From: Oikopleura dioica
Taxonomy: Eukaryota; Animalia; Chordata
Length of the DNA: 64,000 bases
NCBI GenBank assembly: GCA_907165135.1
Contig: OU015569.1
Location: 5,936,769 to 6,000,768 of the forward strand
Direction: 5' to 3'
Position 1 is the first letter of the stretch. Each line of letters opens with the position of its first letter. Position numbers and translations under genes: made by a program. This document shows positions 18,501 to 64,000 of the stretch, piece after piece. The notes beneath the pieces are model-generated. The model had not been told where the DNA came from and ran no database searches. It was given only the letters and a program-made list of their open reading frames with translations.

Positions 18501-18553
18501 AGCGTAATCATTACCTCTTTCAACTCTTTTGGCACATTGATATATTCTGCATT

Positions 18554-20136
18554 CATAGGGCTTCCGTATAAAAAAACAAAATTTTAACTGGGCTGACCGA
18601 ATTGTTTGAAACTCGGGGAGGGAATGTATTTTTCAGTGGAGAAAAATTTTCATCATAAAAAAAAAATTTTTATCCACGCACGTGATTGTTAAAATGAGAA
18701 AACTGATTTTCTCGTCTCGTCCCTTGTCGATTTTTTTCATTTTTAGATATGTGAAAGGGCATAGTCAAAAACCTAGATTTCTTAAAAAAAATTTATTGCA
18801 TATGCAATAAAACATCTAAAATAAGATTTTATCTTGATATTAAGATTTTATTGTTTAAAAAAAGTCCTCCGGAGGACTTTTGCTGGAAGAAGCTTTTATG
18901 AAGAAGACATTGAAAAATTAAAAATAATTTAACAAATCAATCGAAAATAATAATGTATATTTATAAAAACATATCAACTCTACTAAAAACTATCATTCGG
19001 GCTGTTACTTCGGGCCGTTTCAGCCCCGTTCCATGATTTTTAAATTTAAGGGCTTGACGGCCCTTCGGGCCGTTTCAGCCCCGTTCCATGATTTTTAAAT
19101 TTAAGGGGCTTGACGGCCCTTCGGGCCGTTTCAGCCCCGTTCCATGATTTTTAAATTTAAGGGGCTTGACGGCCCTTCGGGCCGTTTCAACCCCGTTCCA
19201 TGATTTTTAAATTTAAGGGGCTTGACGGCCCTTCGGGCCGTTTCAGCCCCGTTCCATGATTTTTAAATTTAAGGGCTTGACGGCCCTTCGGGCCGTTTCA
19301 GCCCCGTTCCATGATTTTTAAATTTAAGGGGCTTGACGGCCCTTCGGGCCGTTTCAGCCCCGTTCCATGATTTTTAAATTTAAGGGCTTGACGGCCCTTC
19401 GGGCCGTTTCAGCCCCGTTCCATGATTTTTAAATTTAAGGGCTTGACGGCCCTTCGGGCCGTTTCAACCCCGTTCCATGATTTTTAAATTTAAGGGGCTT
19501 GACGGCCCTTCGGGCCGTTTCAGCCCCGTTCCATGATTTTTAAATTTAAGGGCTTGACGGCCCTTCGGGCCGTTTCAGCCCCGTTCCATGATTTTTAAAT
19601 TTAAGGGGCTTGACAAAGGCCTGGAACTCCGAGTTGATCAATCTCAGTTATGTCCCCAACCCCACCCACACCCATGATTATTAAAATTCAATTTGTCCTT
19701 GTTTATTTGCAAATTATGGTTTTTCCGTTAAATATTGAAATATTATATATTTTTGAAAAATTTAATTCTATGTCTTCTTCTAAAAAGTTTCTTCCAGCAA
19801 AAGTCCTCCGGAGGACTTTTTAACAATAACAAAGTTAATTTTTTACTAAAAATTACTATTTCTGATGATATAAATGGCCAGTCAAAATTTTTTTTATGAA
19901 ATATTATGTTTTTGATGTTTCTCTATAACATATCAAAAAATAAAAAAAATCCACAAGTGACAACGCACAAATGAAAAATCACCATTTTTATTTATATAAT
20001 TTTGATATAAAACATTATTTTCTTTTAATTCTTTTGCCCCTAAAAACTTTTTCTTATATTGATTTATCCCTCCCATAATTATTTAAGGAAACAATGAACG
20101 GAATCAGAAACAATTTTTTTATACGGAAGCCCTATG
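18554..20136. mobile_element. Composite non-autonomous foldback-type element with nested symmetry. It has perfect 23-bp outer TIRs, about 57-bp inner inverted repeats with a palindromic core, and a central 11x tandem satellite. There is no ORF.
   Basis: Outer TIR catagggcttccgtataaaaaaa (18554-18576) is the exact reverse complement of tttttttatacggaagccctatg (20114-20136). The inner arms 18851-18910 and 19770-19826 share the palindrome agtcctccggaggact. An AT-rich interior lacks any coding potential. Confidence 0.7.
19008..19615. repeat. Tandem satellite of 11 copies of a 55-56-bp unit, cttcgggccgtttcagccccgttccatgatttttaaatttaagggcttgacggcc. Each unit carries the hairpin acggccc-ttc-gggccgt.
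   Basis: Direct reading shows 11 head-to-tail copies with only point variants (cagcccc/caacccc; aaggg/aagggg). Confidence 0.95.
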
Positions 20137-21027
20137 CATTCAACAGAGGGCGAACGCCAAATGCGATCATATATTAATATATAACTATATGGGGGAGATC
20201 AATATGTCACCAGTCTTCGGACATATTCGCGCTTCGAAAAGCGCGATCAAGCAGAAGAGACAATGACTTGCAACATGACAATGACAGATAATAAGTATAA
20301 GAGAAAGCGCAGTATGGTCAAGGGCTCATATTAGAATTAAACATAAACTTTAATCGGCTTCAATCGTAAATATGCGTGATAAGATACGGTCGTTTCTGAA
20401 ATCGTCCCTCAACAAGGTAAAATACGGAAGTTTTTCATATTAAAAACCTGTTCATAGATGCATTTCTACGTAAACTCGGAACTCCGGTAAAGGATGAAAT
20501 GCAAATGATTTATGCTAATAACTTTTATGTTATCGAAATGCTGTGCCAAAGGAACTGCTTTCAACCTAAAAGAACATGCCTTTACAAAGAAGAAAGAGTA
20601 TATTTGACTTCACTCCAAAAGAACGCTTCAAAATGCTAAAAGAGGTGCAATTATTTGAATTGACACACAATCGAGTTGCTCCTTAGGTGAATACTGCAGA
20701 AAAACAGAGTGGAGTTGGCTCGGGTAACATCGAAAGCGCCGCGTATCACGATGAGCATGAACTCACAGTGATCTTCTGGGGGCTAGGTACGATAAAACTT
20801 TGCATTTTAAAGCAATGTTCTTTTAGTTCTTTTGCTATTCTGGTCTTTGGAGTGCTACCGTACTCACTTGAAAGCGTGATTCTTCCTTATGTGCTGGCAA
20901 ACAGCACGGCAAATGCTTCTTGATCAAACCTATCAATAAAGTAAAGAAACACAAGAGTCGAGAATCTATTCTTATATATTCATCTTAATTATTCTTTCTG
21001 TGCAGTAAACGAATTCGAGAAGAAAAA

Positions 21028-33426: not shown

Positions 33427-34068
33427 GGAGGTTTGCAATTAGTCTGGGTACAGACCCAGACTTCGAGCTACAATTGCTAGTCTGGGTCCAGGGCCCAGAC
33501 TTGGTTATATTTTCGTAGTCTGGGTCTCTGGCCCAGAGAAGATCTTTTAACCCGTAGTCTGGGTCCAGGGGCTGGCTGGCGCCTAGTTTCACAAACTTTA
33601 TCAACCCGGTTCAAAATTTCGGGAGAATGGTTCATAATTTCGGTCAGAAAAGTGACTCGAATTGACTGAAGGCGCGGTTGCATAGAAAGTTTAACTTTTA
33701 AAAAAAAGAAAGTTTTAACTTGAGTTTCTCTTCGAAATCAGGCGCGGAGCGCATATTGACCCGTAATTTCTTACTTTGGAAAATTTTGGGAACCGGGTTC
33801 ACACAGATCATGAACTGTGTCCACCCGATCCAGGGCTGATGATCGCGTGAGTCAAAAGAAGGCTATAATGTGAGCACTGTGCCGAAATCCTAGTACAAAC
33901 TACCATCTGAAAGGCTATTTACGGCCCTGGACCCAGACTACGAGTGAAAAGAGCTTCTCTGGTCCCGAGACCCAGACTACGGAAATATAACCAATTCTGG
34001 CCCCTGGACCCAGACTAGCAATTCTTACTCGAAGTCTGGGTCTGTACCCAGACTAATTGCATACTTCC
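33427..34068. mobile_element. MITE-like non-autonomous element (642 bp) with about 140-bp terminal inverted repeats, flanked by a perfect 8-bp direct duplication GTGACTAG.
   Basis: Left arm ggaggtttgcaattagtctgggtacagacccagacttcgag... (33427-33580) is about 90% identical to the reverse complement of 33925-34068. Each arm holds 4 copies of the sub-motif tagtctgggtc. TSD copies are at 33419-33426 and 34069-34076. There is no ORF inside. Confidence 0.75.
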
Positions 34069-40920: not shown

Positions 40921-42442
40921 ATCCTCATTTGCCGCGTTCATTTTTGAGAGCAGTAATTGACTTTCAAATGAATCAAGAAGCTTTTCTTCTTTATAACTTT
41001 CATCAATAAATAAAATTAGGAATATTCAACTAACAAAGTCCCATTTGAACTTGTCCTTCGAAACAAGGTGAATCAATGTGAGAAGAAATTTCCACGTAAA
41101 GAAATGAAATTTTTGGAAATTGATCGATTCGTCGTGCTTCGCAGTGGAATAATTGCTACATGAAAACGCGGTAATAAAAACATATGCTGAATTTGCAAGC
41201 GTTGAGCTTTTTAATTTGTTCATTTCTTCTGAGACAAGTTTAAAAGGTCTTTTCTGAACTAGCAGACGAAATGCCTCGCTAAACGAAATCACGAAAGAAT
41301 AAACCAAAAGAGCCAAATTGACGCGAATCCCTTAACTAAATCTAAATATTTTGACAAAGTTAGATCAAACCGATTTACCTTCTCGGTTTATAATAACTAG
41401 ACTATATAATGAAGTGGATCTGCTTATTCATAGCATATTCCATCTTCTACGGAATATCTTCAAGATGAAGAAGGGCCTCTTTTCAGGAGTTCCACTCACG
41501 CATGGTGGCTTAGAGATTTTTAATTATTTTGAACTCGGTTGTTATTTTAGAACGCGTGTGAATGCTTATTGAAGGAAATATCTGATCTGGCGGTGGAGAA
41601 GTGTTCCTGTCAGCAGGAGCGCGCTCATTGCACAACGTGCGAGCTCAAGTGCACAGAAAATAAATGCGCGCCGGAGCTGGATACTTCCGTGCTTGTCCTC
41701 TTCGACTCGCTGGAAAAAGGAGCTGTCCGCTTTGGCGCCAGCGTTTTCAAATATTTATCGGAATAGGCGAGCTTCTCTAATTGAGATTAATACACTTCAA
41801 AGGAGGACAATAAATCAATTGCGTTAACGAAAAGCGATCCGCTCGAAACGGCTGCATTGACAGTCACGGTCAAAACAAAATGCCAGGACGACATAATCCA
41901 ATTGTCCTCCGATAAGATACGCAGGACAAGTCTAGCCTAGCGACTTCGACACAGAGCCGCCGCAGTCACTTTTGGCGTTAGAGGCAGGGATCCTGCTTGA
42001 CCCTGACACTGGAGCATTCCCTGACGTTTGGTGCATTTTATGACAAAGTCGTTTATTCGAATCGTCGTTATTGCGAATTTAAGGGTGAAGTCAGTTTGAC
42101 AGAAGTGCTCAGTTCATTACTTGTTTTTGGGTATCATCGGCCCAAAACACTAATGAAAAAGATCTTTTTCTAAAGATTTCTCTCTCTTTTAAAATGTTTT
42201 CCCAGTCTCGAAAATGTTTGTGGAAAATTTTCCTAGTGAAGGAGGCGCAAACGTGAACTCGTTAGACCGCAGCGATCGGCAACTCAATAATTCTCAGCAC
42301 GAAGCAACCTTATTCATACAGAGACCTACTGCTAGATAAATAAGGAACTGACTTATAAAAATTTCCAAAGCGACTTCTAATCTTGTTTTTACAGTATAGA
42401 TCACTATAAATCTATCATATCGGATGTACTTAATCGCTTTAA

Positions 42443-42825
42443 GGGGGGGGGGGGGGTCGACGAGAATTTTTTCAGAGGTGATCGTAATTTCGCGTATACA
42501 CATGGTCTGTGTATGAATCTTATATTTTTGGAATCCTCAGATCCTCCTGAATCTGTTGACCCTAAAATCATTCGATAAAAATAAGATTTAGGGGGTGAAA
42601 TTAAGAAAAATGTAAAAAAATGACTATTTTTGGTGCATTTTCGCGAAAATGCCCCTACTTTGACGGCATTTTTGACCGATTTTTTCTGGCCAAAATTTTT
42701 TCTACTTCTCGCCGGTTAATTTTTTCAACCCTTTTCTTTTTGCCAGTAAATTCAGATTTTGCCTATCTGATCAGGTTTTCCCGCATTTTTGGTCACGGAA
42801 ATCCCGATTCTCGTCGACCCCCTCC
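42443..42825. mobile_element. MITE-like 383-bp element bounded by TTAA on both sides. One terminus is a G14 homopolymer, and the TIRs are about 28 bp (...GGGGGTCGACGAGAAT / ATTCTCGTCGACCCCCTCC).
   Basis: The boundaries read TTAA(42439-42442)|GGGGGGGGGGGGGGTCGACGAGAAT ... ATTCTCGTCGACCCCCTCC|TTAA(42826-42829). The interior is AT-rich and non-coding. Confidence 0.6.
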
Positions 42826-43277
42826 TTAAGCGTATTAATAAGTCCCAATATACTTTTTACTTGATAAAAAGTGCCTGGTACTTCCAAAATAACAAGTTCA
42901 TTGACAATGTTTTTCGTCATTTACGATAAATCAATCGAGTTCCATATCTTTAGCGATGGCAAACGAGCATAAGATGAGTTGAGATGCCCTTGAAATGATT
43001 ACGTACGAGAAAATAAATATACGAAACCGAACACTCCCCCGCAATATTACTAATATTATATAATTGGTAATTCAGTTTCACCTGCGATTTAGCGAAAATG
43101 CAATTTCTTAAGAAATAGACGTTCCTGTCATTCCACTTGGCGCTTCGATTAGAGCCGCTGGTGGTGGTGGAGGTGGCGCGCTCTCCCACCTCGATCATAT
43201 AAAAATGCTCGTCCCTCTGGAAAAGGCAACCTGCTAGATACACAGCAGCAAAAGAAAAAAAACAGCCTTTTGAGAAA

Positions 43278-43827: not shown

Positions 43828-45845
43828 GTTGCTAAATCACAGCTGTATAAATAAAAATTTCCGACCCTGCGTCATCACGGTTCCAAATAAATATAATTAC
43901 TAAAAAATCAATTTTGTTTTTGTCTCACCTCACGCAATACCAACGCATCAAGTTCCGCATAAGCTCGAAATTCTCACTGATCCATAAAATATTGACAATA
44001 TTTCTGGAGAGAATAGAATGGAAGCAGAGCACTGCCTTAACTATACTAATATGTAAGAGGAACTCGCAGAATAATGATTAACGAGTTTTAGTGGATACGC
44101 CTGTGACTGTATTCTGGAGCTCTTTGACGAGCTAGAAAACAGCGATCTAAACGCGAAACACACTCTATCAGCGACAGAAGAAATAACGCAGCTGGATGGA
44201 GGCTTACCCCGCGATTGTGAGTTCTTTCATGAACGGATCAAACATTTTGAATTAATTTTATGAGTAAACACATTTCATCCTACAAGGCTTTATGCTGCCA
44301 AAAAGAAGAAGAGAGGACGAAAAGACAGGGATTGAAGCTCAGTGTGATTGAAGAGTATATGATGGAAATTTCAGTTAATTATAGGTTCACGTTATTCCTG
44401 TGTTTCGCATATGAAGGCGCTTCTATAGTTAGAAGTCGCGATTTTCCTTTTTCTTCTTCTTGAAGCTAGACATAGACTAACAGTCACTACCGAGTCGGTA
44501 GTACCGACTGACAGTGACAGGGGAAATTTCCGAGACAATTGGGTTAAAATTAACTTTACATGATTTTTCGTTCAAAACCTGCAAAAGAATCATTCCTTAC
44601 AATGGCCCCCAATACGTCATACTCCTCATCGGATTTTCAGGCTCGATACTAGCAAGACAAGTGGACTGCGATAAATTTAGCGTTTAGACTAATTAAAACT
44701 TCTTTATAGAAATATTTTAAACGCAATAAAAGCGTTTTCTGTATAGTTCTGTCGACGGTCATTTCCTCCATAAGAGTGAGCAAATTTTGATAGACCTATT
44801 TCATATTTTTAAAGAAGCGGCGAAATAAAAGAAAACTGGAGGCAGCGATGGAAAACCGAGGCGAGAACAGTACGTATGAACTCGGGTGAACCAAACACAA
44901 TCAAATTAGAAGACGCTCTTGCTGTGAATTAATTCTGTGTAGCCTTGCTTATTACGCTTCCTTGACATTGCCACGTATTTGATTACAGCTTCTATGTTCA
45001 AAATACTTTTAGGCAACAGACCCCGACTATCAGAAGTCGCCATGCGCTTCGACCGATCCTTCGATGAAAACGTCCAATACGGAAATAGCCAACTCACTGC
45101 CGAGAATTAGGCAAGAACTGGAGGCTTATGCAAATCTTTATCACCACCTTAGATGGATTACAAGCGCCTAAAACTCATTTTCTTTCCACTGCATATGTAT
45201 CCTCGTTGTAAGTAATGATTCGGAAACTGTACTTTTATTTCTTTGTGAGATTTATTGAATAAAAAGGGTTCAGCAGTGTAACCGTCAACTTAAGTAGAAG
45301 AAAGTAAAGGAACAAAATTATGGTAGTCTCGAAATGGGAGAGTTAAATTGGACGGATATTCTAGGCAGTATATACAGTCGGATAGAAAGAAAAGTTCCGA
45401 ACGAGATCTTGAATTTGAAGAGAATTAAGTCGGAGGCTTTTCTATCAACATTTCATTGGACATTTTGTTCTTGTACATGAAAAAATTAAAGAACAGAAGA
45501 ATTAATGAATACAAGAAACACAAGTTGACGCTATCAAGAGGGCTGAGGTTAAAAGCATCACATGCCTTGCCTGACGATCTTTTCACCTTCCAGCTGGCAC
45601 TCACGGACGAGTTGTCTTGCGTGTTGAAGGCCACGCTTGAGCCGTTCTTGCGCACTAGAATTTAAATTTAATGAGCAGCATAGTCCACTTATAGCGCGAC
45701 GATGAAATAAAGTCAAATCAATTCGCAACGGTAACCGAGTTTCTCGCCCGTCACTCCGGATTTCGGAGCCGTGTAAAACATCGAACCAGATAGAGTTAAC
45801 ACTGACAAAATCGCAGTTTATATTATTTCTGCAATTTACCTCTTG

Positions 45846-46302
45846 CTGCCCGCGTAAGTCGGCCTGACGTCTTTGCCGAGCTCGTCAATGACTCCAACGA
45901 GATCCTCGAATTTTTCAGTCATGCGCGGTTGATCGATCATCTTTGCCGTTCGCGGCTGCTTTTGCGCCGGTCTTGAGTAAGGCGCATTGCTTTGCTGCTT
46001 CGACTGACGCTTAATTCAATTCAATTTTATGCTACTTGTGGACCATTTTCTTACATATGAAGGGGGTGGGTTGCTCAATGCTTTCATTCGCTCTTTGTAA
46101 GTCGGCTTCGTTTCGGCCATTGCTCGGTAGTTAGCTGCAGCCTGTGCGGCGGCAACTTGCTTTCCGAGCATTTCCAACTTCTTTTGTATTTCTTCGTTCT
46201 GAAAACTTTCATAAAAAAGGACTTTAACTTAGGACTCTACCGTTTGTCGTTGAGCAACTTCCAGGAGCTTCGCCTGCGCTGCTATAATGTCTGGCGGGTT
46301 GT
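45846..46302 (-). CDS. Small (about 110 aa) unassigned protein, 3 exons.
   Basis: MSRNNPPDIIAAQAKLLEVAQRQT|gtagag..(42 nt)..ttttcag|NEEIQKKLEMLGKQVAAAQAAANYRAMAETKPTYKERMKALSNPPPSY|gtaaga...aattaag|RQSKQQSNAPYSRPAQKQPRTAKMIDQPRMTEKFEDLVGVIDELGKDVRPTYAGSKR*. Confidence 0.55.
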
Positions 46303-46533: not shown

Positions 46534-48258
46534 TTAAGTTGCTTCAGGGATTTCGTCCAGGGAGGGGAGAAGATCGTCTATAATTGGAGGGCCTTCCAGA
46601 GAGCCTTCTTTATTTTCAATCACTGTGGGCAGATCTTGCTCCATGGCGGAAGAAGCATCATTCTCTTGCGATTCTCCTCCGTTAATTCCCAGATTAGAAA
46701 GGCTTTCTTCAAGAGGGCTCGGAGCCTCTGTTATTCCTGTAGTCCCTCGTTGCAACCCAGGAATTGATACCGACGGATCCTCATTAAAGTCAGCCTCTTT
46801 TTCATACTCGTACTCGGGTTCGGAGTCTATATCAAAGATACCGTCCCATTCGTGGATCATTTCCACCATCAGCTCTTCGTAGAATTCGCATACAAGCTGA
46901 AATAACACGTAATTGAGTGTCATGAACATTTTTTTACCTTCGGACAGTTTTTGCGGCAGTCTTCGCTTTTTACGAAATCAATTATCTTGCTATCTTTCCA
47001 CTCGATTGCAAAGTAAACTGAATAGAAGATGCTTATTAAAATTGTTTTTCTTTTACAGTAGTTTCTAGTGCCTCTCGAGACGCTAAGATAATTCTTACTT
47101 TGGCCGTCGTTGTCTGCAACGCATTCGTGAATTTTGACAGCTTCAAAGCCGCGATTAAAGCCGACTTTCTCTAGATCAGCCCAGGGATCGTCTTCTTTCT
47201 TTTCGTCACCGACGACCTCTTCATCCTCCTCTTTCGCCGCCTTCTTTTTCTCATTCGTCTCAGCGATTTGATCAGTCTGGGGTCCGTCTTGGCTTTCGTC
47301 ATCTGAATTCTGAATGTGCATCGCTTCAAGTGCTTCATCTTCCCACGGTTTCTCCCATTTGATATCTGGGTGCGCCGGATCTATCAGCGGCGCTTTTTTC
47401 GTCTGACGCTCTTTCTTGAGAAAGTTCGGATCGACAGATTCTTCATCCTCCACTTTCTCTTCATTCTCATCGGCTGCTTCTGGCTCATCATTTGCTTCGT
47501 CGACATCGTCGTCTTCGAAAGCCAATTGTTCCAATTTTCCAGGGTTCGAACGTCTGTACTCAGCAACCAAAAGTTGTCCAGGTGTGTCCTGTGGATCTGG
47601 TCTTTCTTCAGCGAGCTCTCCCTTCCTTGAATCAACGAAATTCGATTCTACTCTTTGTGAAGGTTCAATCATTGAAATAGAGGCAAGTATTATTTCCTGA
47701 TTTCTGAATATTGAATCAATCGGAAATGAAGAACCCCGGCTAAATATCATTTCGGCTTGGAGAGCTTCTTCGGCCGTCTCCTCTCGTTTCCGCTTTAGTC
47801 CAACAATCCGTATCGGAGGAATCTTTGGCTCATGGCTTGGTTTTTCTTCCTCTACATTTTCCAGAGGCTCCTGTGGTTTATCTTTGTCTTTATTTCGCCT
47901 CGAGCTTTTCCGACGTTTTTCTTTCGCACTATCTCTCGATTTTTTTCTATTCCTGGACTTTTTCTCCTTTTGTAATTTTATATCAGCGGCATGCTTTTCC
48001 TCGAATTCTCTGATTCTATCCGCGCAGTCTAGGAAGTTAGATTTGAAAAATCTTGCCAGAACCGAAAAAAATTACCTAGATTCTCTTCTGGCTCCCATGT
48101 ATTCTGCTCATCGTCGTAGCCGGCCCATTTTATCAAATACTCGATACCGCCCTGAATAAACGCTAGAACTCCCGAACACTTCCTTCGACACTCACTTGTC
48201 GTTTACGTTTGCCGAGGATCTTCTCGACTTCGAACTCCTCTTCTGATGCCACACTCAT
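46534..48258 (-). CDS. Chromodomain protein with a long acidic (Asp/Glu-rich) C-terminal region, at least 4 exons.
   Basis: Exon 1 is [21 protein letters not shown]|gtgagt. Exon 2 is [25 protein letters not shown]..., a canonical chromo signature (E-x-ILxxR...G.xEYLxKWxGY...NTWEPEENL). The 276-aa and 131-aa ORFs (46920-47750, 46534-46929) are extremely acidic ([26 protein letters not shown]...). Confidence 0.75.
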
Positions 48259-50115: not shown

Positions 50116-52160
50116 TTCGAATATTCCAGATTCTTTGTTGCGCAAAAATGGTAATAACTCCGCAATACCCGGTAATGTCCGTCATTTTTTTGGCTAGCAA
50201 AGTTATAAGATGCTGCTTCATCAGCTGCTATTGACCTTTGTAACGGATTTTACAATTTGACCATCTCTTTTTTGGAGTCTTCTTGTCATTCAACTTGCTG
50301 GATGGAATCCAAGCTCAACTCTTACCGTATATTCTTCTGACACAAGTGCACAATCAGTATACACCCTCACCAAAGCTTCCCCTTGACGTCTTCCATGGTG
50401 CCTGCAAGTATTGAAATACGAAGATCTACTCGTCCAGAAAGGGCCTTACGGTAAGGCCCTTACCAACAGCTCTAGACTCTAGAGTCTAGACAAACCTCTC
50501 AAGGGATGATTTTCCCACGATCTTGGTGGGAAAAAGTCTATTGACAGATTGTTCTATTATACAAGAATACATCCCTCCCTAAAGCTTCAAGATCGAAAAT
50601 GCAATTTACTAAGACTTGAATATCCGATTACGTAGTACCCGAGATAACTCAACTTCATCAGCTCCTCAAATTGCCTGGATTCTATGACTTAGATTCTAAG
50701 CCTTAGAATGAACCCTGCTGAAATGCTTTTCTTGCCCTGCATAAATGAACATATCACCAAAGGCTTCTTCCAAATAAGTCATAAAATCATTTTTATAAGA
50801 AAGAGTCTTTTCGAACCGATGATCAAATGTATTGAAAATACTATTGTCGATCACATGTTAACGGAGAAACAAAAGCAGCTGCAAACACGAATAATTATTT
50901 AACAATTGATAAAAAAGAAGAGAAACGGAGAAAACCTCTCGAAACGCGTACGGGGGCTCTTTGTTCAAGGGAAGGTTTTGTTGTTGTAAGTGTAGTTGTA
51001 TCAATTTATCATCTGTTTCAGAAGGAAAGGTAGAAATGAGATTAAAATAGCTGGTAATGCCACCGTGTTTGTGGTTCAATTTTATTTGTATTTTTTGGAA
51101 TTTTCTCGGCTTGAAAGAGATGTACGTGAAGAGGGTTACGAAAGATGGATGGGTTGAACTTGGGGCTTTACAGGGCGATACAATACGGGAGAGCGCCCGC
51201 GCACGGTGGAAAATAAGAAGAGTGCGAAAGCAAACGCCCCCGTAAAAGAAAAAATCACAAGTACACGCCTTTTTAGAATAAAAAAGTTAACGCTCTCTAT
51301 GTATTCAACGGCTTCATGAGACGCCAGAGTCGCGAAATGAAGGGGCGCAAGTCTGGGACCTGATAATGAAGTGGCCAGGCTGGGTAGTGCTTGTAAACTA
51401 CAGTAAGAAGCGATAGCAGCATTTATCCGTGAACCAGCGACCCCTGGCAGAAATACATGCAAGGGCTGAAAACATAGAAGAGTATAGAAGCCAGTGTCCT
51501 GATTCTGATATAATCAAGGAGAAATAAATTTACGTTTGATTACCATTTTCCTGGGCGACTAGCTCATAGAAATTGAAAAATGAAAATGGTGACGGGGCGG
51601 GAACAGGGCAAAATAGAGGAAATAAATTGGATATCTTTATTTGGATGATCGTGAATTTCATTTCATGCGTTTTTTTTAATTGAATTTACGGTTATTTGCT
51701 TAACGGTTCGATTGGATTAGAAGAATTTGAACTTTTTTTTAACCTGACTAGGGCACTGGAGTGGAATAGAGTGTGCCTGAATCTGGCAAGGCCCAAGGAT
51801 AACGGGCTGAAGTGCGGGACGAGTACACCAGCGCGAAGGTGTAATAGTGAAAAGAAAAAAAAACAACATAGTAATATAGACTTACAGGAAAAAGAATTTA
51901 AGTTAGATTGAAGGTCCCTAAGACATGTATCCGAATAAATTAAGAATTAGACGGCGTTCGGCGGTGGGGTTGATTCGGCCCCGCAACTGAACGCGCTGTT
52001 CACAGGTAATTTTTTTTCATTGTTGATAAATTTGAGATTTAAAATACTTAGAATTTGAAGAGCTATAATTTGACATTGGTTGAAATTGTAACTAGAGGGT
52101 CAATTCTTTAATGAAATTGATGCGTCTCTTCTCACATAGAACAAGAAGCGGGGCATTGTC

Positions 52161-52887
<727 letters not shown>

Positions 52888-53169
52888 TTGACGAGCTGCT
52901 TTTGTTTTTGAAGAGGTTCGTTTAGACCACTGGCCACCGGTTGATTACGACTCAAACAGAAACAAGCACTTCACGAGAGTGACGCCTGCGCGTGTTGATT
53001 CTAAACGCGAAACGACGGTTAGAGCACAATCAACCTGTGAAAAACTGATCAAAAGTTTCCTCGAAAACAGGTTTTTGTTGCGCAGTATTTTTTAGAACCC
53101 AGCACGATTTTTATTGATCCAATCAACATGACGAAAGGATTTAGGGTCAATTCATCATTCGTTCTCAAT

Positions 53170-53800
53170 CAGCGGGCGCTAGTTCGTTTACTTCTTTCTT
53201 CGCAACTTGCCGAGCTCAGCCTTGACGATTCGGTTGCGGGCCTGCTTCAATCGCATGAGCTTGAATCGGTCGAAGTCGGTCAAGTTAGCTCGGATGTTCT
53301 TTCGGGCAATTCCCTTGGCCAAGTCAGTCTCGGCGAACTTGTTGGCGATATCGGCGGCGGCGAAAGCCTGAAAAGAATCAATTATCGGAAAAGAGAAAAA
53401 GAACGCTTACCTTCTTGACAGTGCCGGGTCGGGCGCCAACGTTGATCTTGACGGAAAGGTCGGTGATTTGGATGGCCTTGACAGAGACGGTGTATCGGTT
53501 GAGGTTTCCGTCGTCGACGAGAAGTCTAAAGTGAAAAGTCAGAAATGCCGGCTTTATAAACCTATTCACCGGTTGAGGTCGATAACGTTGGTGATGGCGC
53601 AGGCCTTCTTGAGGGATGGGACGTAGACGACACCGCCGATCTGGACGAATTCAGTGAAGACCATACTGAGTGATTTTAGGTCACGATTCACAAACGTCTG
53701 AAAAGCAAGAGAGTCAGCAAGGATCAGAATAGGTTTCGGCTTGTTTTTTGGTTCGCGGATGAAAACGGCGCGAATGTGAAGTGATTGAACGTGCATGGGT
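53170..53800 (-). CDS. Small basic protein (ribosomal-protein-like composition), 3 exons, family not assigned.
   Basis: Exons 53566-53796 (...KPKPILILADSLAFQTFVNRDLKSLSMVFTEFVQIGGVVYVPSLKKACAITNVIDLNR), 53378-53569 (LLVDDGNLNRYTVSVKAIQITDLSVKINVGARPGTVKK) and about 53170-53380 after a ttttcag acceptor (AFAAADIANKFAETDLAKGIARKNIRANLTDFDRFKLMRLKQARNRIVKAELGKLRRKK*). The antisense 96-aa ORF is low-complexity. Confidence 0.5.
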
Positions 53801-54008
53801 CAGAAGAAGAAAGGTTCAGGTCAGTCCTCTTTGAAATAAAAGAGTCAGTTAAAATAAAGAATAGAATTGGGAGTTTGGAATACTGTACATGTTGATCCTT
53901 GGAATGAAGCTCGATAGGAACGAAAAAAGATCTTGATCAACTTTTTTGATCATTTTTGAGCATAAACATGTTTTTTTACGATTTCTTGAAGATTGCAGCT
54001 TCAGGAGC

Positions 54009-55059
54009 CAAATCGCTTTTTGGCCTCGGCCTCAGGACGCGCTCTGTTCAGCACCTAAATGAATGTTACTCAGGGAAAATATTTCAGACTCGTTACCTTT
54101 AGGAAGTCGCTAGTTTTGTTTCTCATTCTTGAATTAATGTATGCTTTGCTACATTTGATATGGTAGTGAAGGTAATTGCGGAAGGTATGAATAAGATCTG
54201 AATTAAAAACGGAAATGAGCAACGGGATGACTACAGGGATATTCTCACCTATCGTTTTGTCGCGAGTTCCATCAGCAAAGTGACGGGGCAAAAGGACGAA
54301 AGTGATGTAGCCGACATCTTCTCCGGATCTAGCGTCTGTTCCACGCAGCTCAGATGGTGGCTCTTTTGTCGAAAACAGAACCTTACAGCGAATTATGAGA
54401 AACGCGTTCAAAATATTTTTTTTACCTGTGGGGCGGTTGCTGAAGCTCTTCTCCCTTCTTTAAACTCTTGGAGGAAGACGCCACCAACAACAATGTCGTC
54501 CTTTTCTCTGAAAGTGGTGGAGAAGATCACGGTAACGCGATCGGACTTTGCCTCAACGTAGACGCTCTCGCCCTCTCTGAAATGAATAACGGCGCGTTGA
54601 ATTTGACTCCCGCTGGCCTGAAACAGAACTTGTGAACTTTTCAGTGTTGATTTCGTGCAAGGCTACCTGGGCTTGAAAATATTTCTCAAAAACGGCTGCG
54701 AAGCAGTTTCGCTTCAGCCGAGCAGCGTCTCGCGCCAACTGCTCGTAATTCTCTGGGATCGCCGAGAGCGGAAAGGCCAGGACGATGCGTTTGCCAACGC
54801 TTTGGAGAAATTGCCCGTAGACTTCCTTTAGTTTATCGGTGGCACCGTGCTTCTCGAGTTGGTCGAAGAAGGCGATTTCAAGCGCCAGCTCAAGTCGATC
54901 ACGATTGCTCCCATCTGGCGAGTAAAGATGATAGATACAGCCGTCGAAGTCGACGATGCGCGCGTTCACGTGATCGAACTTGCCTTTTTCACGCCCCGAC
55001 TTGAAGTGGTTGGTGAGCGCGTCGAACACGCCACGGTTTTCGACTTCGAGCAGAATCAT
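54009..55059 (-). CDS. ARPC2: Arp2/3 complex subunit 2 (ARPC2 / p34-Arc), about 4 exons.
   Basis: [20 protein letters not shown]...[13 protein letters not shown]...[15 protein letters not shown] (54553-55059). The middle exons are about 54420-54590. The C-terminal exon (54070-54411) contains [14 protein letters not shown]...[34 protein letters not shown]. The final exon is ...[17 protein letters not shown] (about 54009-54075). It is collinear with ARPC2. Confidence 0.9.
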
Positions 55060-55162
55060 TTGCTGAAGAGACTGGAGTTAAAAATAAAAATCGATGATTG
55101 GCGATGTTGGATCAAAGGGCAGTCAGTAGTCGAAGAAAAAGACTTGAGAGTGGAACTCTTAT

Positions 55163-56254
55163 TTGTCGGGAAAATCCTTGAGCCCCTGAATGTGCGTGTT
55201 TTGAGTTTTCACCACTCGATTGTTTTTCCTCTTCTTGCGTTTTACTGAAGTAGGAACCTAAAACGAAAAAATGTATGGAAAAAGAATGAGAGAAAAGTTC
55301 GTACCTTCCGAACACCAGGATCGTCGGCGAAAGTGATTCCCTGTTGCGCAAGATATTCAGCGATTTTCTCTTCGTCAACAGATTCGACAGTAATTGAGCG
55401 CCAGAGCTTCTGGAAGGTTTCGTCCATTTCTATTTCCAAACTTCTGTCATTGAAGAAAATCACAGTCTAGGCAGTATGAATCAATTTTTGCACTTTTTTT
55501 CTTTCGACGAATGTAGTCTTCTGTATTTTAGTTAGCTGCTTACCTTCTTATCGGGGCGATTGTGTAGATGAATATTCTTCTTTTCGCTGTGGTATTTGAG
55601 GATCTTGTCTGCCTTGGGGAGACTTTCTTGTACCATTTCTTTGGTGACGCCACCAAGTCCATCATGGTAATGCCGCTCGAGAAACTGGAGAAACGACTTC
55701 TTGTCTCTGATGCCCTCAATTGACGGCTTGTAGACGTATTTGACGACGTCGCCGGGAATTTGACGCAGCTTGGGATTCTTGGGCAGCGCGTCTTCAAGGC
55801 CCATGCGCGCTGCGTTCGCTGAGCAAGTCAGTTCAGTTCTAGTGTTCCGGCTTGCGCATTTTACCTACACACTGTGGTCGTCGAGTTGCACTCCTCGAGC
55901 ACTTCGTCGAGACTCAAGGGCAGCAGCTCGTTCTGCAAGTGGCGATTCTTCATGTGAGTGACGATTTTGTGGATCAAATGGAAGTTCTTAACCGGTACGA
56001 CTTTCCCGCGTGACTTGCTACTTCCTTCGAGACGGGGTCGCTTTGATGCTGGCTGAGATCTAGAAGGAAGAGTATTCACACTACGTTCGGATCTATTTCT
56101 TTATCAGTTAATTATTCAGTTCTATAATCATTTGGGAACTCTCTAAGTGATAACTTGAAATACGATTCATGTCCATGACTCACTTGTTTTCAATAACAGG
56201 AACATTCTGAGCTCGTTTCAGGAAAGCCTCTCTCTGCTTCAGTAAATCGGACAT
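55163..56254 (-). CDS. GTF2E2: General transcription factor IIE beta subunit (TFIIE-beta), about 5 exons.
   Basis: MSDLLKQREAFLKRAQNVPVIENK|gtgag (56254-56183). ...KNFHLIHKIVTHMKNRHLQNELLPLSLDEVLEE (55861-56079). LQFLERHYHDGLGGV...KILKYHSEKK (55532-55804). [44 protein letters not shown] (55242-55463). A basic tail VKRKKRKNNRVVKTQNTHIQGLKDFPDK* follows. It is collinear with human TFIIE-beta. Confidence 0.85.
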
Positions 56255-57619
56255 TCCTCTTCCTCTTTCTTTTTATCTATTTATAGGAATTTTCTTCTTT
56301 CAGGCCAAAATTGGATTTTTTCTTTACGAGCGAACTCTTCGTTTTTTCAGTAGTTTCTTCTGGGAATCTCTCCGTTTATTCGAAAAAGAAAAAAATGAAT
56401 GTTGAGTGTGAAGATATGGGATAGTTCTTTTGGTGTTGGCGGAGACGGAGCCACGTGTGCTGGCGCGACAACTGGTCACTTGGTGGTGGAGCAGAGACGC
56501 GAGTAGACGAGAGCTCTCGTGCTCGACGAAACTGTTTTGCGGCGGCGGGCTCTGGGCAACATGAACGGGCGCAGGGCCAATCGGCCTTCTCCATTTCCAG
56601 CGTGGGCGTAAGATCTTTCCACGCTCCACGGAGAACGGCGCATAAACGCGCCCCGCGCAAGGAGGAATCTCTTCAATCACAAATCCAAAGCGCATTCACC
56701 AGCCACTCGACTAATCACGCCCTCAAGGTCAAGTCTGTCCTCTACCCATGCAGTTCTCCTTCCAAAGGGGCGTTTTTTCAAGGCTGGATGAACTTTTTTT
56801 TAAGTAACCTTTTATCAAGATCGAACCAAACCGAAACTTTTCCACCGTGTCTTGAAATTATTGCTTTGAAATTCAATATTTCCATTGTATTTTAAAGACA
56901 AATCAATATATTTAGTTGCTGTGCTCAAGAGAAATTGCTTCCCATGCTGAGAGAAAAGATCTAGAATTAGTAACACTCACTTATCTCAATTGAACTTGCA
57001 ATTCTTTCTCTCCCTGAAAAGAAAAAATCTGCGTTGATAGTCTGCTTGCATGTCATGCAAATTCAGAATTTACAGTGCTTTCCCTTCAGCTTAGTCACTA
57101 TCTAATTAATTTCTGAGTAAATACGTCTGTCTCTCTTTATAAAATACCCAGCATATTCAGAAATGCCAATCGCGGTAATTGTCCGCTTTTGAAGTTTATC
57201 ACTCAAGTTAAAAACAAGGAAAAAGTACCACGTTTTCATATTTTCTGCCTGAGTGTTTCTTCCTTGATATCAATCAACGAATTCAAATTCAAAAAATGTG
57301 AGTTGCAATTTTTGAGGTGATCTATCCGAGATCCGTCCGTTTTTCTTTCGGATTGTCGTGAATGATTTAATATTTATCCTTTATTAGTAGTATGAACAGA
57401 GAAAGAACATTAGGAGAAGGATTGGTAGCTTTTCATTTTGAGGGGATGTAGAAATGAAGATGCCTCTGTCGAAAAAGGCTGATTTGAAAGTTGAAAATGG
57501 GGAATTTTTATTTCGAAATGACTTTTCGGCTGGAAATGCATGGAGATCGTTACAATAACAGTAGACGAGAATAGAAACAACGTGAATGAGTATAAAAGCG
57601 AGCAAGAAAAGGGGACTGG

Positions 57620-59493
57620 TTAGAATCCAAAGTCGCGATCTTGGAGAACAGCCGGAGCAATCATGGTCCAAGTGTAGAGCAAAACGCACACCCAGGCGGA
57701 ACACATTTTTACCCACACGGGAGCCCATCCGGCGATGACAAGCGGATTATTGTCCTAAAACAGCGTAGAAAACTGTACTATCAAGTTAGTTCAGTCTTAC
57801 CTTGCTGGCTTCCGCGGCTTGAGAGATATTGAACCAGTAAGTCAATGTCATCATAATGTAAAGAGTTCCAAGGGAAAACATGAAGTGCAGATAGCTTAAA
57901 ATTTGACCCTGTTAAACCCTGCTCATGGCCATTTTAAAACCTATAGCTGTATTGAGTAGCGTCTTCTTCGTCGTCCCAGGTTCCGCCTTCAGGATCGCTT
58001 TGATCTGTCATTACAACTGTGTCCGCTTCAGCGGGTTTTCCAGAGCCTTAAGAATTTTTAGAATTTCGCAAGACTTTCGCAAAAGCCGATAATGATAATC
58101 TGGGAAGTGAAATAATTTGTGAAAATGAATCTGTGAGTGTTAAATTGTCGCGTAAATTGGCAAGCATATTTCAAGAAAAGCATGCAAAACGGGTTACCTT
58201 CATTCAGTCTTTCGTAAGTTGCTAAGTTCACGGTGAAGCTTGATTAATCTCAGTGGTACAAGACAAATTTCATAAAAATTTGAAAATCACCGATTCAATA
58301 CCTGCGGAGGAATTGGTAAGGGAGGACCAGAGGACTGCCAAGAAGAAAAGAATCAAGCCAACGATAGATTGGGCGTTAAATCCAGTTATTCCTAGGAGCG
58401 AAAGATAAAAAACGAGGACTGAATTGAATAAGAATGCCTTGAGTCGGATCAGTGTTTGGGTCTGGCTGGCCGCCATCAGTAATGTTGAGGATGCTGGCGA
58501 TGCTTGGATTGCAATCGAGCTCGGGCGAATTCGACATCGAAGACCAAGTCAAGAACATAACGTAAGCAGAAACAACTGCAGACTGGAGGAGTCCAGATGC
58601 CGGGTTATGCTCCTGTACCTAAACTCTCGTGTTAACGAAGTTCTTGACAAACGGACTCATACCTTGGGAAGGATCGAAACGACAGAAATTATAAAGCAAA
58701 GGATCATATTAAAGCTGATGAAGAATTTGTGTAGGCTGCAGGAGTTTGTTGTCTCCGTAAAGTTGCCACCGTAAAAGTAAAAGAGATATCCAATGGCGAC
58801 ACTTGTCAGGACGAAGATCGAGAATGTAGCAAAAATGAGCCCTGCGAACCAACATTTTTGGTCGCGCTCGTCGTCGGCATCTTCCATGTTCTGCACTGCC
58901 CAGGCGTTGATTCGATACGCAAAATCAATGAAGAGCACCAGTTGAATCAAAATAAAGGCCAATCCGCCGATGAGTCCAAACACGTACATGACCTGATCGA
59001 ATGGCTCGGATGGGATAAAGAAGGCGGCGGTGATAAAAGCTGCGAGAATAAGAAACTTGATTCCCCAAAAACCATTTTGAATTCCAGAGCGAGGATCCTT
59101 CGAGCTTCGTGTGCCCAGCATCAAAATCATGAAGAGCCAAAAGAAGCAGCACATTCCGAAGCAGACTCGGTAAGCGGCCTCGAATCCGACGAGTCGAGTA
59201 CAGTCAATCGCGCCATCGCCAGTTGTCTGCGTGCCAATAAGACTGTCGAGTTGGGCTGTGACGTCAGAAATTCCATCATTGCGGGTGCCCTTGCAGAGCA
59301 TGGGAACTTTTCGGAGCGCGTCTTCTAGTCCATTTGTGCACATAATCATCGCAAGAATACTTCCGAGGAGCATAAAAAGCGCATACATCAGTCGCGCACT
59401 CGTTGAGTTTTTGCATGATGGACATGCAGAACAAAGACACGAAGCTGCTTGGCCCGTTACACAACAGGCGAGCGATCCCAGTCCGAGACACAT
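57620..59493 (-). CDS. SERINC: Serine incorporator (SERINC/TDE1/TMS1 family) multi-pass membrane protein, at least 5 exons.
   Basis: The 278-aa exon 58657-59493 ([27 protein letters not shown]...[17 protein letters not shown]...[17 protein letters not shown]...[19 protein letters not shown]) is collinear with SERINC N-terminal halves. Later exons are ...[27 protein letters not shown] (58376-58558), [41 protein letters not shown] (58270-58476), ...[22 protein letters not shown] (about 57950-58040), [21 protein letters not shown] (about 57800-57895) and ...[39 protein letters not shown] (57620-57750). Confidence 0.9.
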
Positions 59494-59536
59494 TCTCTAA
59501 AAATGAAAATCTTGGTTGCGCAATTTTTCATTTGAA

Positions 59537-60334
59537 TCAGGAATCAGCGTCTTTTGTAGAAGATTTTTGGTCCTCAAAGTCGGATAAACAAAAAGGAGGC
59601 CCATGGCCTGGAAAAATCAAATCAGGCTTGGCATGTTGCTGAATGAAGAGACGCGAGGCTCGCGAGAGCGCCGGTTCTTCAGAGAGAGATTCATAGAATG
59701 ATTCATCATCTTTTTCATCCCAGAGGTCACCAACAAACGCAAATTTTGAGTAGCGTTCGTTGCGAAATATCAAATCGCCGGTGATAATGAGACTGCAGCA
59801 GCCACCAGTGTGTCCGGGCGTTGTTATGTATTCCAGAGAGACATCTTCATTTTCGAATTTCAGAAGACAGGCTCCTATTTGCTTGTCTGACGGAAGTAGA
59901 CGAGGGCTACGGAAACGCTCCTTTATACTTGTATCCCGGCCAACGCTTATCACAGCTATAAAAATCCAAAATCAATATAAAAACATGCATTACCTGATGG
60001 AAACAGATTCAAGTTTCCCACGTGATCAGAGTGTCCGTGGGAGCAGAATACGGCGTCGATGGCACTTATGTTCTTCTCTGATAGTTCTAGGCAAAACTCA
60101 TCCGCTAGCTATCCTTTTTTTGACTTTACTTTCAGTAATTGTATCTCTTTCATGCGCCGCCCCACAATCAAAGAGAACATTTTGCACTGGAGAAATTTCG
60201 GGCTTCTGCTTTTCGAACTCGAAAGTCTCATTGACGGCATTTCTCAGCGAAATCAAACATACAGTGCAGCGTGCATGAAAAACAGAGTTAATTTCTCGAG
60301 CGTAGCCTTCTTGAATCAACGTCACTTCCGCCAT
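59537..60334 (-). CDS. MBLAC1: Metallo-beta-lactamase fold protein (MBLAC1-like), about 3 exons.
   Basis: MAEVTLIQEGYARE...NVLFDCG (start 60334; an in-frame upstream Met at 60418 is also possible). ...LELSEKNISAIDAVFCSHGHSDHVGNLNLFPS| (HxHxDH zinc motif, about 59995-60090). The 59537-59953 exon carries ...TTPGHTGGCCSLII...FPGHGPPF... The stop TGA is at 59537-59539. Confidence 0.8.
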
Positions 60335-60469
60335 TCTGGAAATGAAAAAAATATTAACTTGGTGGGTCAGAAATTCATTTTCTATTAGGAAAATCTGGGG
60401 CTCGGAAGTTAGGATCATGCAGGTCCATATTTAGTTCTTCAGCAGACATATCGCCTTGTCTTCTGTCTA

Positions 60470-62528
60470 ACGGCTTCTTTGCATCACGTGCTGCTTTAAT
60501 TTCGGCCATTTTCGCTCTAAAATCGAATCAGCTGAAGGATTGCAACTGAGGTTCTTACCTAGCTTTTTGCTTAATCCTTTCTTTTTGTTTCCTGCCCGTG
60601 TTTTTAATTTCATTTTCTGGAGCTGTTCTGGTCGGGTGCTTCTTATCGTATCTGGCGAGTTCTTGAGCTTCGAACTTTGCCATTTGCTCAATCTCCTTTT
60701 TCACAAGCGCCGATGTCTATAAATCCAATTATGCATAAAAACAAGGCTTTCGCTCGAACCTTGAAAAGATGCCCCTGATTGGGGCCTAGAAGACGGCCGA
60801 CTCTTTCGAATTGGTCACCGTCCATGCCACTAAAAGAGTCTTCTGCATCTTCGTAAAAACGATTTTCAAGAGGAATTCCAAGACGGTTTAATATTTTTGA
60901 AGAAATCTGAGGAATAGCAGGTTGCAGAAGAATAGCAGAAACACGTAGAAGCTCATAACATGCATGAATAGCTTCAGTAAAAGAGTTTTAGATTCTGCTT
61001 TATCTAATAACTATGCTCTACCTGAATCTTTCTGCATGCGTTCACTTTTTATATCTCTATCCAATTTAAAAATCTTTTCGTTTGTCATGAATTGAAGTCC
61101 TTCTTCAACAGCTCGAATGACGCAGTTCATTGCACTTGGAAGCTGTCCTTGGTCGACAAATTTCGCGTACACTTCTGGCAACTCTTGAACAGTTTCGATG
61201 AGATATTTTTCGCCGTCGGGGCGATCTAACAGCGAGTCAGGGAAAAGAGTCGGATATGCTCCACTAGGGTTGAGATTCTTCGAAGTGGTTCTTGAGAGAA
61301 GATTCGCGATTTTATTTGCCAAGTCGCTATCAGACTGAATTCTGAGTAGCTCGTCCTGAAAGTCCACGTTCTTGAGGGTAGCATGTTTGAGACAGAACCA
61401 ACGAACAGCGTCACTTTGATTTCCGACTAATTCGAGCAGCTCCTTTGGAGTGACAAAGTTGTCCAGACTTTTGGACATTTTCATTCCATTTCGCGTCCAA
61501 TGACCATGAACGAAGACTTTCTTGGGCAGAGGAAGATCCGCAGCCAGAAGCATCGCTGGCCAATAAATACAGTGGAATCGAGCGATATCGATCCCGAGAA
61601 CTTGAAGTTGCGGCGGCCAGAAATCGAGAGCGTTTTCATGTCTTGCGTAGCCAGCTGCGGTCAAGTAGTTGATTAACGCCTCGAACCAAACGTACATTGT
61701 ATGATTTGGATCATCAGGAACAGCAACGCCCCATGGAACTCTCTTTCTCGGCCTAGAAATAGAAAGACTGGTGTTGCCAGTATTTCTTCGCTCCTTCAGC
61801 TCATCGATTAAAACTTTAGCAACATCTGGGGTAACAGCTTTTTCTATCCATGCTTCTATTTCGCTTAAAAATGGCTCAAAATCGAAGATATAGTTTTCTT
61901 CAGAAATCCATTCTAGTTGATGGCCGTTTACGCTACTAAAGTGTTTGCCGTCCTTTTCTACTATTTCTTTATTTCCGACAAATGATTCATCTGGTGTCGA
62001 ATACCATCCTTCGTAATTCTTAATTCTTATATGACCCTTCGATCTTAGCCGGCTCCACAGCTTCTGGGCGGCCTCGTGATGCTCAGGATTTGTCGTTCTC
62101 ATGTAAATTGCATCGTCGAGGGAGGCAACAGAAATGGAGAATTTTTTAAACGTTCTTCTATACAAGTCGGAGATGTTATTGACGAGCAGCTCTGGGTGAT
62201 CGTAGCCCTGTTGTGCAGCTGAGCGAATGATCTTTTGACCGTGTTCATCAGTCCCGATGGAGAATTTACTAGGGACATCGTTTATCTTATTCCAACGGTG
62301 GTAAAAGTCCCCAATTACACTAGAGTGAATATGACCAATGTGGGGAGTAGACGTCGCGTAATAAATGGGACAGGTAACAAAATTGGTCTGCTTGTTTAAT
62401 ATGCGTACGCCATGCGTTTTTCTCAGGTCACCACGAGAGGCGGAAGAAGTCTGCAATGATCCTAGATATCGATAGCTGAGTATTTGCGACTTCGGTCTGA
62501 GTCCGATCATGCTAAACAATCTAATCAT
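60470..62528 (-). CDS. MARS2: Methionyl-tRNA synthetase, organellar (mitochondrial) short type, about 3 exons.
   Basis: The 505-aa first exon begins with a presequence-like N-terminus (MIRLFSMIGLRPKSQILSYRYLGSLQTSSASRGDLRK). It carries the class-I HIGH motif (YYATSTPHIGHIHSS) and KMSKS. Downstream exons are about 60730-60900 (...IPQISSKILNRLGIPLENRFYEDAEDSF...) and about 60470-60700 (Lys-rich tail). Confidence 0.9.
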
Positions 62529-62842
62529 CAGTGAGGATATTTAATTTAGTGATTGCATTTCTCTAAGTCACATGGTTGGTCTTCACAGAGAAGAAATATT
62601 TTTGAGGGAGTAACAGGGGAGAAGTTAGACGGACGAAGACTTCAAAATAAGATGAAATATTGCCATAAATGCTATTTCGATAAGCAGGCAATTAATAATA
62701 ACAAAGACAGTGAAGTTATGTTTTATATAAGGCCCTGAGCAGTCCAGAGCAGTCCAGAAACATATAAAAGATGGTAAAGGGTTCTGGCGAAGAAGAAAAT
62801 TATACTAGTTGGAGGCTCTTGGCACTCAGAAAATTTCAACAT

Positions 62843-64000
62843 CTTCAGGAGCATCGAGATCCTTGTAGCTGGCGACTGGGCGATTGGTATACGAGTCACG
62901 GCGATCCGGCTATGATTCAGTTAGCAAGAGGGATGGATCAGTGATCATTGATTTTACACCAGAAGATAAAAGACACCATTTCTGCACCGCGTAGAAAACT
63001 AACTCTGAGCTACTGATTCTCAAATATGAGACCACCGCACCGCGCTCACCACGGTTAAAACTTACATGCTCGTGCGATTGGTGATGTTGACTGGTGTTGT
63101 TGTAGTTGTTCTGTCTTACCTGGTGATGTCTCATCGGCATGTGGCCGGGTGGCATGTGTCCTGGTGGTGGTCGGAACGGCTGAATAGTTTGCACTGGATC
63201 ATTGGGCCTCTTTGGATCAGCCAAGTACCGGTTGAAGAATTTCACCTCTGAATAAAATGTGAACAACAAAAAATCAATAAAGAACAATACCGTTGCGGAC
63301 CGCTTCGACTTTTTCGGCGTGTTTGATAAGAATATGCTTCTTCACAAACTCCGGGCCTTTGAACTTTTTGCCTGAAAGTGGGCAAAGATATTTTTCTGGG
63401 CCGAGCTGTTGGGTATTTGCTTCAATGAACTTCTTGATTTCTTCCTCTTCGTCTTTCATTCCTAGCTTTTTGATTTCCTCTTCATCTAGTTTTGTGCCTT
63501 CTGTGAGCATTCCGTTGCACTTCTCGAGGAACTTCTTTACGTAATCATTCATTTCGAAAGGCATGATAGGATTGCTGAAAGACGTTTAACAAACAATCAG
63601 ATATGTAGAAAGTCACCTTGGGGGCTCGCCTCGAACATGAATAATTCCGCAACGATTTGGCATCTCGTCTTCGTTTCGATATTCAGAGTGATTGTAGTAA
63701 TCAACTGAATGAACGAGGCGGAGATACAGAGTGAGAATGTCAGCGATTTGCGCCAATTTTTTGTCGTAGTTGAGATGGATCTCATCAGCGTTCTTTGGGT
63801 CATCTTCTACCGGGTTCTTCTCAAGATAATCTTCCGTCTTGAGGATGACCGGATTTGGCTTGAATTTTGGTAAGATTGAGCGAGTTGGCTCCGGATCTTA
63901 CTTGTTTGCCCGTGTACAGCTCGTATTTCTCGTCGAATTTCTTGATAAGCGACATGAGGTTGAGAATGTCCGCCTTCATGATGGTGTTGTGATTAGCCAG
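62843..64000 (-). CDS. SRRT: SRRT/ARS2 (Serrate RNA effector molecule) C-terminal half. It is partial, and the 5' end lies beyond the window.
   Basis: ...[37 protein letters not shown] (about 63590-63800). [16 protein letters not shown]...[33 protein letters not shown] (63274-63564). ...[15 protein letters not shown]...[11 protein letters not shown]... (62910-63250). The terminal exon ends ...[19 protein letters not shown] at about 62843. It is collinear with the ARS2 C-terminal ZnF region. Confidence 0.85.

Follow-up and report, generated by a model that had tools for sequence, protein, structure and literature searches.

A multi-copy family of TTAA-flanked miniature transposable elements with G-tract ends, represented in Oikopleura dioica and probably of Kolobok type

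We describe a short mobile element found in a 64,000-nucleotide (nt) window of Oikopleura dioica (the whole stretch of DNA analyzed here, with a GC content of about 42%), which belongs to the X-specific region (XSR) of the Okinawa assembly OKI2018_I69. The element, at positions 42443-42825, is 383 bp of non-coding DNA with TTAA on either side, and it is almost certainly one copy of a multi-copy, TTAA-specific miniature inverted-repeat transposable element (MITE) family. Its members have symmetric ends and sit at different TTAA sites, each between the two halves of a TTAA duplication, and the family was recently mobile in at least one genome. From its sequence we consider it probable that this is a family of Oikopleura MITEs of about 380 bp with Kolobok-type ends (the T2-MITE type) rather than piggyBac ends. 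It is a new family of an already known kind of transposon, and as such is ordinary, unsurprising transposon biology. The parts of the element are as follows (TIR, terminal inverted repeat).

42439-42442, no strand: left TTAA target-site duplication (read directly; TTAA abuts all readable termini of the family).
42443-42456, plus strand: G14 homopolymer, the outermost part of the left TIR (read directly; the equivalent on the right arm is GGAGGGGG).
42449-42467, plus strand: left TIR as aligned with the right arm (GGGGGGGGTCGACGAGAAT; repeat search and arm alignment).
42457-42467, plus strand: 11-nt core of the left TIR, TCGACGAGAAT (read directly).
42468-42806, no strand: non-coding interior, 339 bp (indels among copies; no Pfam or Rfam match).
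42516-42588, no strand: internal imperfect inverted repeat with 19-nt arms, 84% complementary (repeat search; part of the predicted single-strand fold).
42635-42652, no strand: internal perfect 18-nt palindrome, GCATTTTCGCGAAAATGC (repeat search).
42807-42825, minus strand: right TIR, ATTCTCGTCGACCCCCTCC, with reverse complement GGAGGGGGTCGACGAGAAT (repeat search and arm alignment).
42826-42829, no strand: right TTAA target-site duplication (read directly).

An earlier reading of the letters alone (the original prediction) had placed TTAA on both sides of the element and a run of 14 G at its start, and direct reading confirmed both. Its estimate of about 28 bp for the TIR was overstated: the repeat is 19 nt, matched at 18 of 19 positions (95% complementary), with arms 339 nt apart and the form GG[G/A]GGGGGTCGACGAGAAT. 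The left arm carries six extra G, which would extend it to 25 nt if they were counted, and the alignment of the two arms stops at GAGAAT. The G14 tract is the only run of ten or more G in the window; how long it really is remains in doubt, since the assembly was built from Nanopore reads (Canu and three rounds of Racon, then polishing with Pilon) and homopolymers, as its authors found, are hard to resolve (PMC8008620). The interior had been called AT-rich and non-coding, and the second half of that description stands (no Pfam match, and indels that break the frame), but the first was overstated, the GC content of the element being 39.9% versus 42.0% for the window. The interior and its open reading frame (ORF)-like stretches gave no Pfam match, and Rfam and tRNA scans of the element were likewise empty.

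The TIR is more than a chance feature. In the whole 64 kb the 16-mer GGGGGTCGACGAGAAT is present at two places only, in inverted orientation, whereas 0.27 occurrences are expected even with three mismatches allowed, and the expected number of perfect inverted repeats (16 nt or more, within 2 kb) in a Markov-resampled window is 0.05. TTAA stands at 329 of the 64,000 positions (0.5%), so that it would be found on both flanks by chance with a probability of about 3e-5. These TTAA sites mark the limits of the inverted repeat, because the flanks outside them are not significantly palindromic (166 of 2,000 shuffles and 37 of 329 control TTAA sites score equally). We also considered the outer TTAA sites at 42430 and 42838 as the true ends and ruled them out, both on the non-significant palindromicity of the flanks and because the other copies of the family stop at the inner TTAA.

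Those other copies were found by searching 1.84 billion representative proteins with phmmer (HMMER), using as the query a 103-codon stop-to-stop stretch in the element (window 42407-42715, minus strand). The matches were four short unnamed ORF calls (P0121, at 2e-25, P0122, P0123 and P0125) and one repetitive noise match. The four calls belong to marine-metagenome contigs of the European Nucleotide Archive (ENA; L129 to L132, 689-908 bp each), all of which carry the element; a Tara Oceans assembly (PRJEB4352) is the source of two of them, and the remaining two are from other assemblies. Together with the element in the OKI2018_I69 window, which has no second copy, whole or partial, within its 64 kb, five copies are thus known at five loci, four of them on metagenome contigs. 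The original prediction had named two findings that would count against it, a lack of other copies and flanks other than TTAA; instead there are four more copies, with TTAA at eight of the eight readable termini.

The metagenome copies are 80-84% identical in nucleotide sequence to the window element over aligned stretches of 319-372 bp (80-85% for the interior). In the five-way alignment (A1) column identity averages 80%, and indels 1, 2 and 7 nt long disrupt every reading frame. The complete copies are those of the window (383 bp), L129 (380 bp) and L131 (377 bp); L130 and L132 both run into a contig end, leaving one readable terminus apiece. L129 and L131 come from different assemblies, have unrelated flanks and are 98.8% identical (337 of 341 positions); such identity at different loci points to recent transposition in their host, for which a plankton animal such as Oikopleura would be the obvious candidate. 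The central 16 nt of the internal palindrome (CATTTTCGCGAAAATG) are kept in four of the five copies and are degraded in L132, the sole difference in L129 and L131 being the final base. In L131 (20-230) what appears to be the end of an exon (...ATCCGAG/GTAAAG, with the slash at the boundary) precedes the copy by about 30 nt, so that this copy is probably intronic.

Other searches were less informative. A six-frame translation joined with X and submitted to a word-indexed protein search gave no match, a false negative in view of the copies that the exhaustive HMMER search later found, and negatives from such X-joined chimeric queries are not trustworthy. In metagenome DNA, a scan for the two-arm TIR pattern returned 0 matches and a scan for the TIR 16-mer returned at least 120, all of them chance among the matches listed. 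Collections of viral and prokaryotic genomes gave either no matches or four single 16-mer matches, presumed to be chance (not checked one by one).

With five copies in hand, the possibility that the inverted repeat is not mobile at all, and is a chance or structural feature such as a regulatory hairpin or the gene for a structured RNA, can be given next to no credence. The arms of the window copy are short (19 nt), and a single strand of the element folds better than its shuffles (z = -4.5), as such a feature might. Yet the five copies have unrelated flanks and identical boundaries, the Rfam and tRNA scans found nothing in the element, and the chance expectation of about 0.05 per window applies before TTAA flanks are even required.

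The termini of the copies are the most informative part of the family. TTAA abuts all eight readable ends and the 12 bases beyond each TTAA differ in every case; these are separate insertion sites with the same duplication. The original prediction had taken TTAA for both the target site and its duplication, and the copies support this. Every terminus starts with GG and carries a G-rich tract (G14, GGAGGGGG, G10, G7, GGTGGGG, G7, GGGAAGGGGG and GGGGGAGG), and the tracts, some of them interrupted by A or T, measure 7, 7, 7, 8, 8, 10, 10 and 14 nt. Tract length differs between the two arms of a copy as well as between copies, and this spread of 7-14 nt bears out the expectation that the G run would vary from copy to copy. 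Inward of the tract, the 11-nt core is TCGACGAGAAT in both arms of the window element and in L130, whereas L129 and L131 have TGGTCAATATT in both arms and L132 has TCGTCAATATC. TCGACGAGAAT and TGGTCAATATT differ at five positions, each mirrored in both arms, and paired changes of this kind are expected if one protein reads both ends. The designation as a MITE was also well founded: the complete copies are uniform in size and below about 800 bp, carry TIRs, are flanked by a TTAA duplication and have no coding capacity.

The same ends bear on the length of the duplication. It could be that the true duplication is TA (Tc1/mariner, with ends A-GGG...CCC-T) or TWA (PIF/Harbinger), and that the full TTAA is coincidental, an effect of palindromy; we regard this as highly improbable. 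A single copy cannot separate these readings, given that TTAA contains TA and overlaps TAA and TTA, and Tc1/mariner MITEs are described in the literature as the commonest in animals. Under a TA duplication, however, the outer T and A must recur by chance at eight of eight ends (about 0.3 per base); under a TWA duplication the triplets on the two sides, TAA and TTA, form direct repeats only if the ends of the element are made asymmetric. The same full TTAA is found, moreover, around a second element from Bergen O. dioica, which is described further below.

Assignment to a superfamily turns on the bases just inside the duplication. TTAA duplications together with 5'-RR...YY-3' termini separate Kolobok from piggyBac (PMC9587614; PMC6004289), and both features are found here, the duplication at eight of eight ends and RR...YY at the termini. 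All ten termini that we could read, eight from the family and two from the Bergen element, have the form 5'-GG...CC-3'. Among 157 piggyBac-like elements surveyed, the TIR starts with C[C/A/T][C/A/T], the first C being highly conserved, and excision requires the terminal G (PMC5381638). The family shares the TTAA duplication with piggyBac, but none of its TIRs starts with the conserved C and ends with G (eight of eight start with G). Kolobok-type ends are favored because all termini are GG...CC next to TTAA and the characteristic piggyBac end is lacking. The piggyBac-like label of the original prediction is accordingly not supported by the comparison, although the doubt it had itself raised over the inverted GGG...CCC order of the ends was justified, RR...YY being the order that fits Kolobok.

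The likeness to known Kolobok MITEs extends to several features. The Xenopus T2-MITEs (for example, Xmix) have the TTAA duplication, RR...YY ends and G-rich first bases (AGGRR, AGGGG...), and these T2-MITEs and the full-length XKol elements begin with TTAA+AGGRR, for example AGGGGAACTATC (PMC6004289). Kolobok MITEs, like the present family, are a few hundred bp long without coding capacity, with a mean length of about 386 bp in insects. Unlike them, the family has as its outermost 7-14 nt a near-homopolymer G tract of variable length, and the two are likened by their ends, not by sequence similarity.

A number of observations weigh against a Kolobok assignment and keep it at the level of a probable reading. 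The assignment draws on the target-site duplication and the terminal dinucleotides and on nothing else; Xenopus Kolobok ends start with AG, whereas those of the window family start with GG. Sola is another superfamily with 4-bp duplications. In the DNA examined no transposase was seen and no autonomous element was found whose ends match. Pfam has no model for the Kolobok catalytic domain, and Kolobok in Oikopleura is unreported in the searchable literature. The window copy is alone in its 64 kb and the other four are from metagenomes, where the flanks of L129 to L132 match none of the Oikopleura DNA compared. Finally, O. dioica is reported to have piggyBac ORFs that are divergent and intronless (PMC3902484).

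The last point also speaks for a piggyBac-superfamily MITE with atypical ends, mobilized by a divergent Oikopleura piggyBac transposase that would recognize 5'-GG...CC-3' instead of 5'-CC...GG-3'. We consider this unlikely, although it is the strongest of the competing explanations. piggyBac and its MITEs resemble the family in their obligate TTAA duplication (here at eight of eight termini), short TIRs and G/C-rich ends, and one annotation of O. dioica transposable elements lists a class that a figure legend expands as 'PiggyBac-like element' (PMC5240408). Set against this are the ends themselves: piggyBac ends read 5'-C[C/A/T][C/A/T]...G-3', with the first C highly conserved in the survey of 157 elements and with excision abolished when the terminal G is deleted (PMC5381638), whereas all eight family termini and both termini of the Bergen element start with G. 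Less likely again, in our estimation, is that the family belongs to another or an undescribed cut-and-paste superfamily with 4-bp duplications and a preference for TTAA (of Sola type, or a lineage specific to larvaceans). The family is known from its ends only, 44% of the repeats in OKI2018_I69 are unclassified (PMC8008620), and a TIR that bears a homopolymer is not described for the Xenopus Kolobok elements (PMC6004289); but TTAA with RR...YY already fits a described superfamily (PMC9587614), and no observation demands a new one.

The second element lies in an intron of the Serinc gene in Bergen O. dioica. It is 660 bp long (14342-15001 on locus L125, or 14338-15005 with its TTAA sites) and has the structure TTAA/GGGATC-C10-GTT...AAC-G7-GATCCC/TTAA. 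Once the element and one TTAA are taken out, what is left of the Bergen intron (123 nt) can be aligned along its whole length with the Okinawa intron of 146 nt (window positions about 58047-58193, minus strand), and this clean 664-bp indel relative to the orthologous intron therefore marks a lineage-specific insertion. An allelic Bergen scaffold has the same 660-bp element up to a sequence gap. Like the window element, it is non-coding, has TTAA on both sides, starts with GGG and ends with CCC, has a GC content of about 38%, and carries in its TIR a homopolymer of unequal length in the two arms (C10 versus C7). It differs in size (660 versus about 380 bp) and in its TIR core (GGGATCC...), and the two have no interior similarity, so that the Bergen element constitutes a separate family. 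The Bergen assembly is presumably Sanger-based, in which case homopolymer-bearing TIRs would not be merely an artefact of Nanopore sequencing.

A mechanism can be proposed from these features and from established cut-and-paste behavior. A DDE/DDD transposase, encoded elsewhere and acting in trans, would bind the 11-nt core of each TIR and cut at the TTAA/G junctions, excising the element; the element would then reinsert at a new TTAA through 4-nt staggered cuts, and gap repair would yield the flanking TTAA pair. The terminal G tract would be the slippage-prone part of the TIR, with a length that may drift by replication slippage after insertion. That the cleaved end carries so variable a tract is a minor oddity of mechanism, and the tract is likely to cause errors in assembly. 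A more ambitious proposal, which we put forward as a long shot, is that the window and Bergen elements mark a larvacean lineage of TTAA-targeting transposons whose transposase tolerates a homopolymer of 7-14 nt between the cleavage site and the core. If so, the lineage would represent either a Kolobok clade not yet described or a relative of piggyBac whose terminal specificity is inverted, and its recent activity would have taken place in a genome considered to hold few DNA transposons.

For annotation, the work adds a defined family (consensus structure, target-site duplication and TIR variants) to the poorly classified repeats of O. dioica. Cut-and-paste elements with TTAA duplications and Kolobok-type ends exist in marine-plankton DNA, most likely that of larvaceans, and have moved recently. 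The family also illustrates that a TTAA duplication alone should not be taken to mean piggyBac, since it is the terminal dinucleotides that separate piggyBac from Kolobok.

The window copy sits within a non-coding gap of 1.1 kb between two plus-strand ORFs. These ORFs gave no Pfam match and a chimeric protein query was also empty (a type of query shown above to be unreliable). They are listed here with the nearest exons that have domain support.

Ends at 42173, plus strand: ORF to the left of the element (without homology support).
Starts at 43278, plus strand: ORF to the right of the element, with a signal-peptide-like start (without homology support).
45561-46015, minus strand: CDK2AP-like exon, among the nearest domain-supported features (domain match).
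46923-48202, minus strand: HP1-like exon, likewise among the nearest (domain match).

The placement of the window in the XSR agrees with its mitochondrial methionyl-tRNA synthetase (MetRS) ORF (505 amino acids, 61011-62528, minus strand), which is 100% identical to an annotated OKI2018_I69 XSR protein; the next-best matches, with identities of 86% and 82%, are further proteins of O. dioica. The window is accordingly DNA of an animal, a larvacean tunicate. The Bergen locus L125 (GCA_000209535.1, FN653079.1) is colinear with window positions 51-64 kb, and the locus itself ends about 9 kb short of the MITE site; none of the window proteins is identical to its Bergen counterpart on L125. The gene order MetRS - Serinc - ARPC2 (P34-Arc) - L14e - E2 (window 51300-64000) is kept in the Okinawa XSR and in Bergen FN653079.1. 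The same order is found on a 49-kb ENA metagenome contig (L127; ERZ27294030 k119_1539181), which represents a more distant Oikopleura-like genome, with exon nucleotide identities of 65-83%.

Several other repeats were noticed in the course of the analysis. At 16984-17405 there is a foldback-like element of 422 bp, with 154-nt arms that are 93% complementary and 114 nt apart, and with no obvious target-site duplication. The region 18548-20142 forms a structure of 1.6 kb with an inverted repeat of 29 nt (93% complementary) at its limits and inner arms of 107 nt, and it contains a 56-bp tandem array (10.9 copies at 98% identity, 19008-19614). Two TTAA pairs within it, 18855/19823 and 18840/19838, were considered as further examples of TTAA duplication and ruled out, being mirror images inside the longer inverted repeat and not duplications. 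On the Bergen locus, positions 4484-5521 of L125 hold a 1,038-bp element with a perfect 17-nt TIR (CAGGGTGGCAATTTCGG) and 8-bp flanks matched at seven of eight positions (GAAGGCAT and GGAGGCAT), a hAT-like signature. Finally, an inverted-repeat element of 642 bp at window positions 33427-34068 has 144-nt arms (91% complementary) and is built of repeats of about 38 bp; flanked by a perfect 8-bp direct repeat, GTGACTAG, it looks like a MITE-like insertion of a different superfamily, the length of the duplication being hAT-like.

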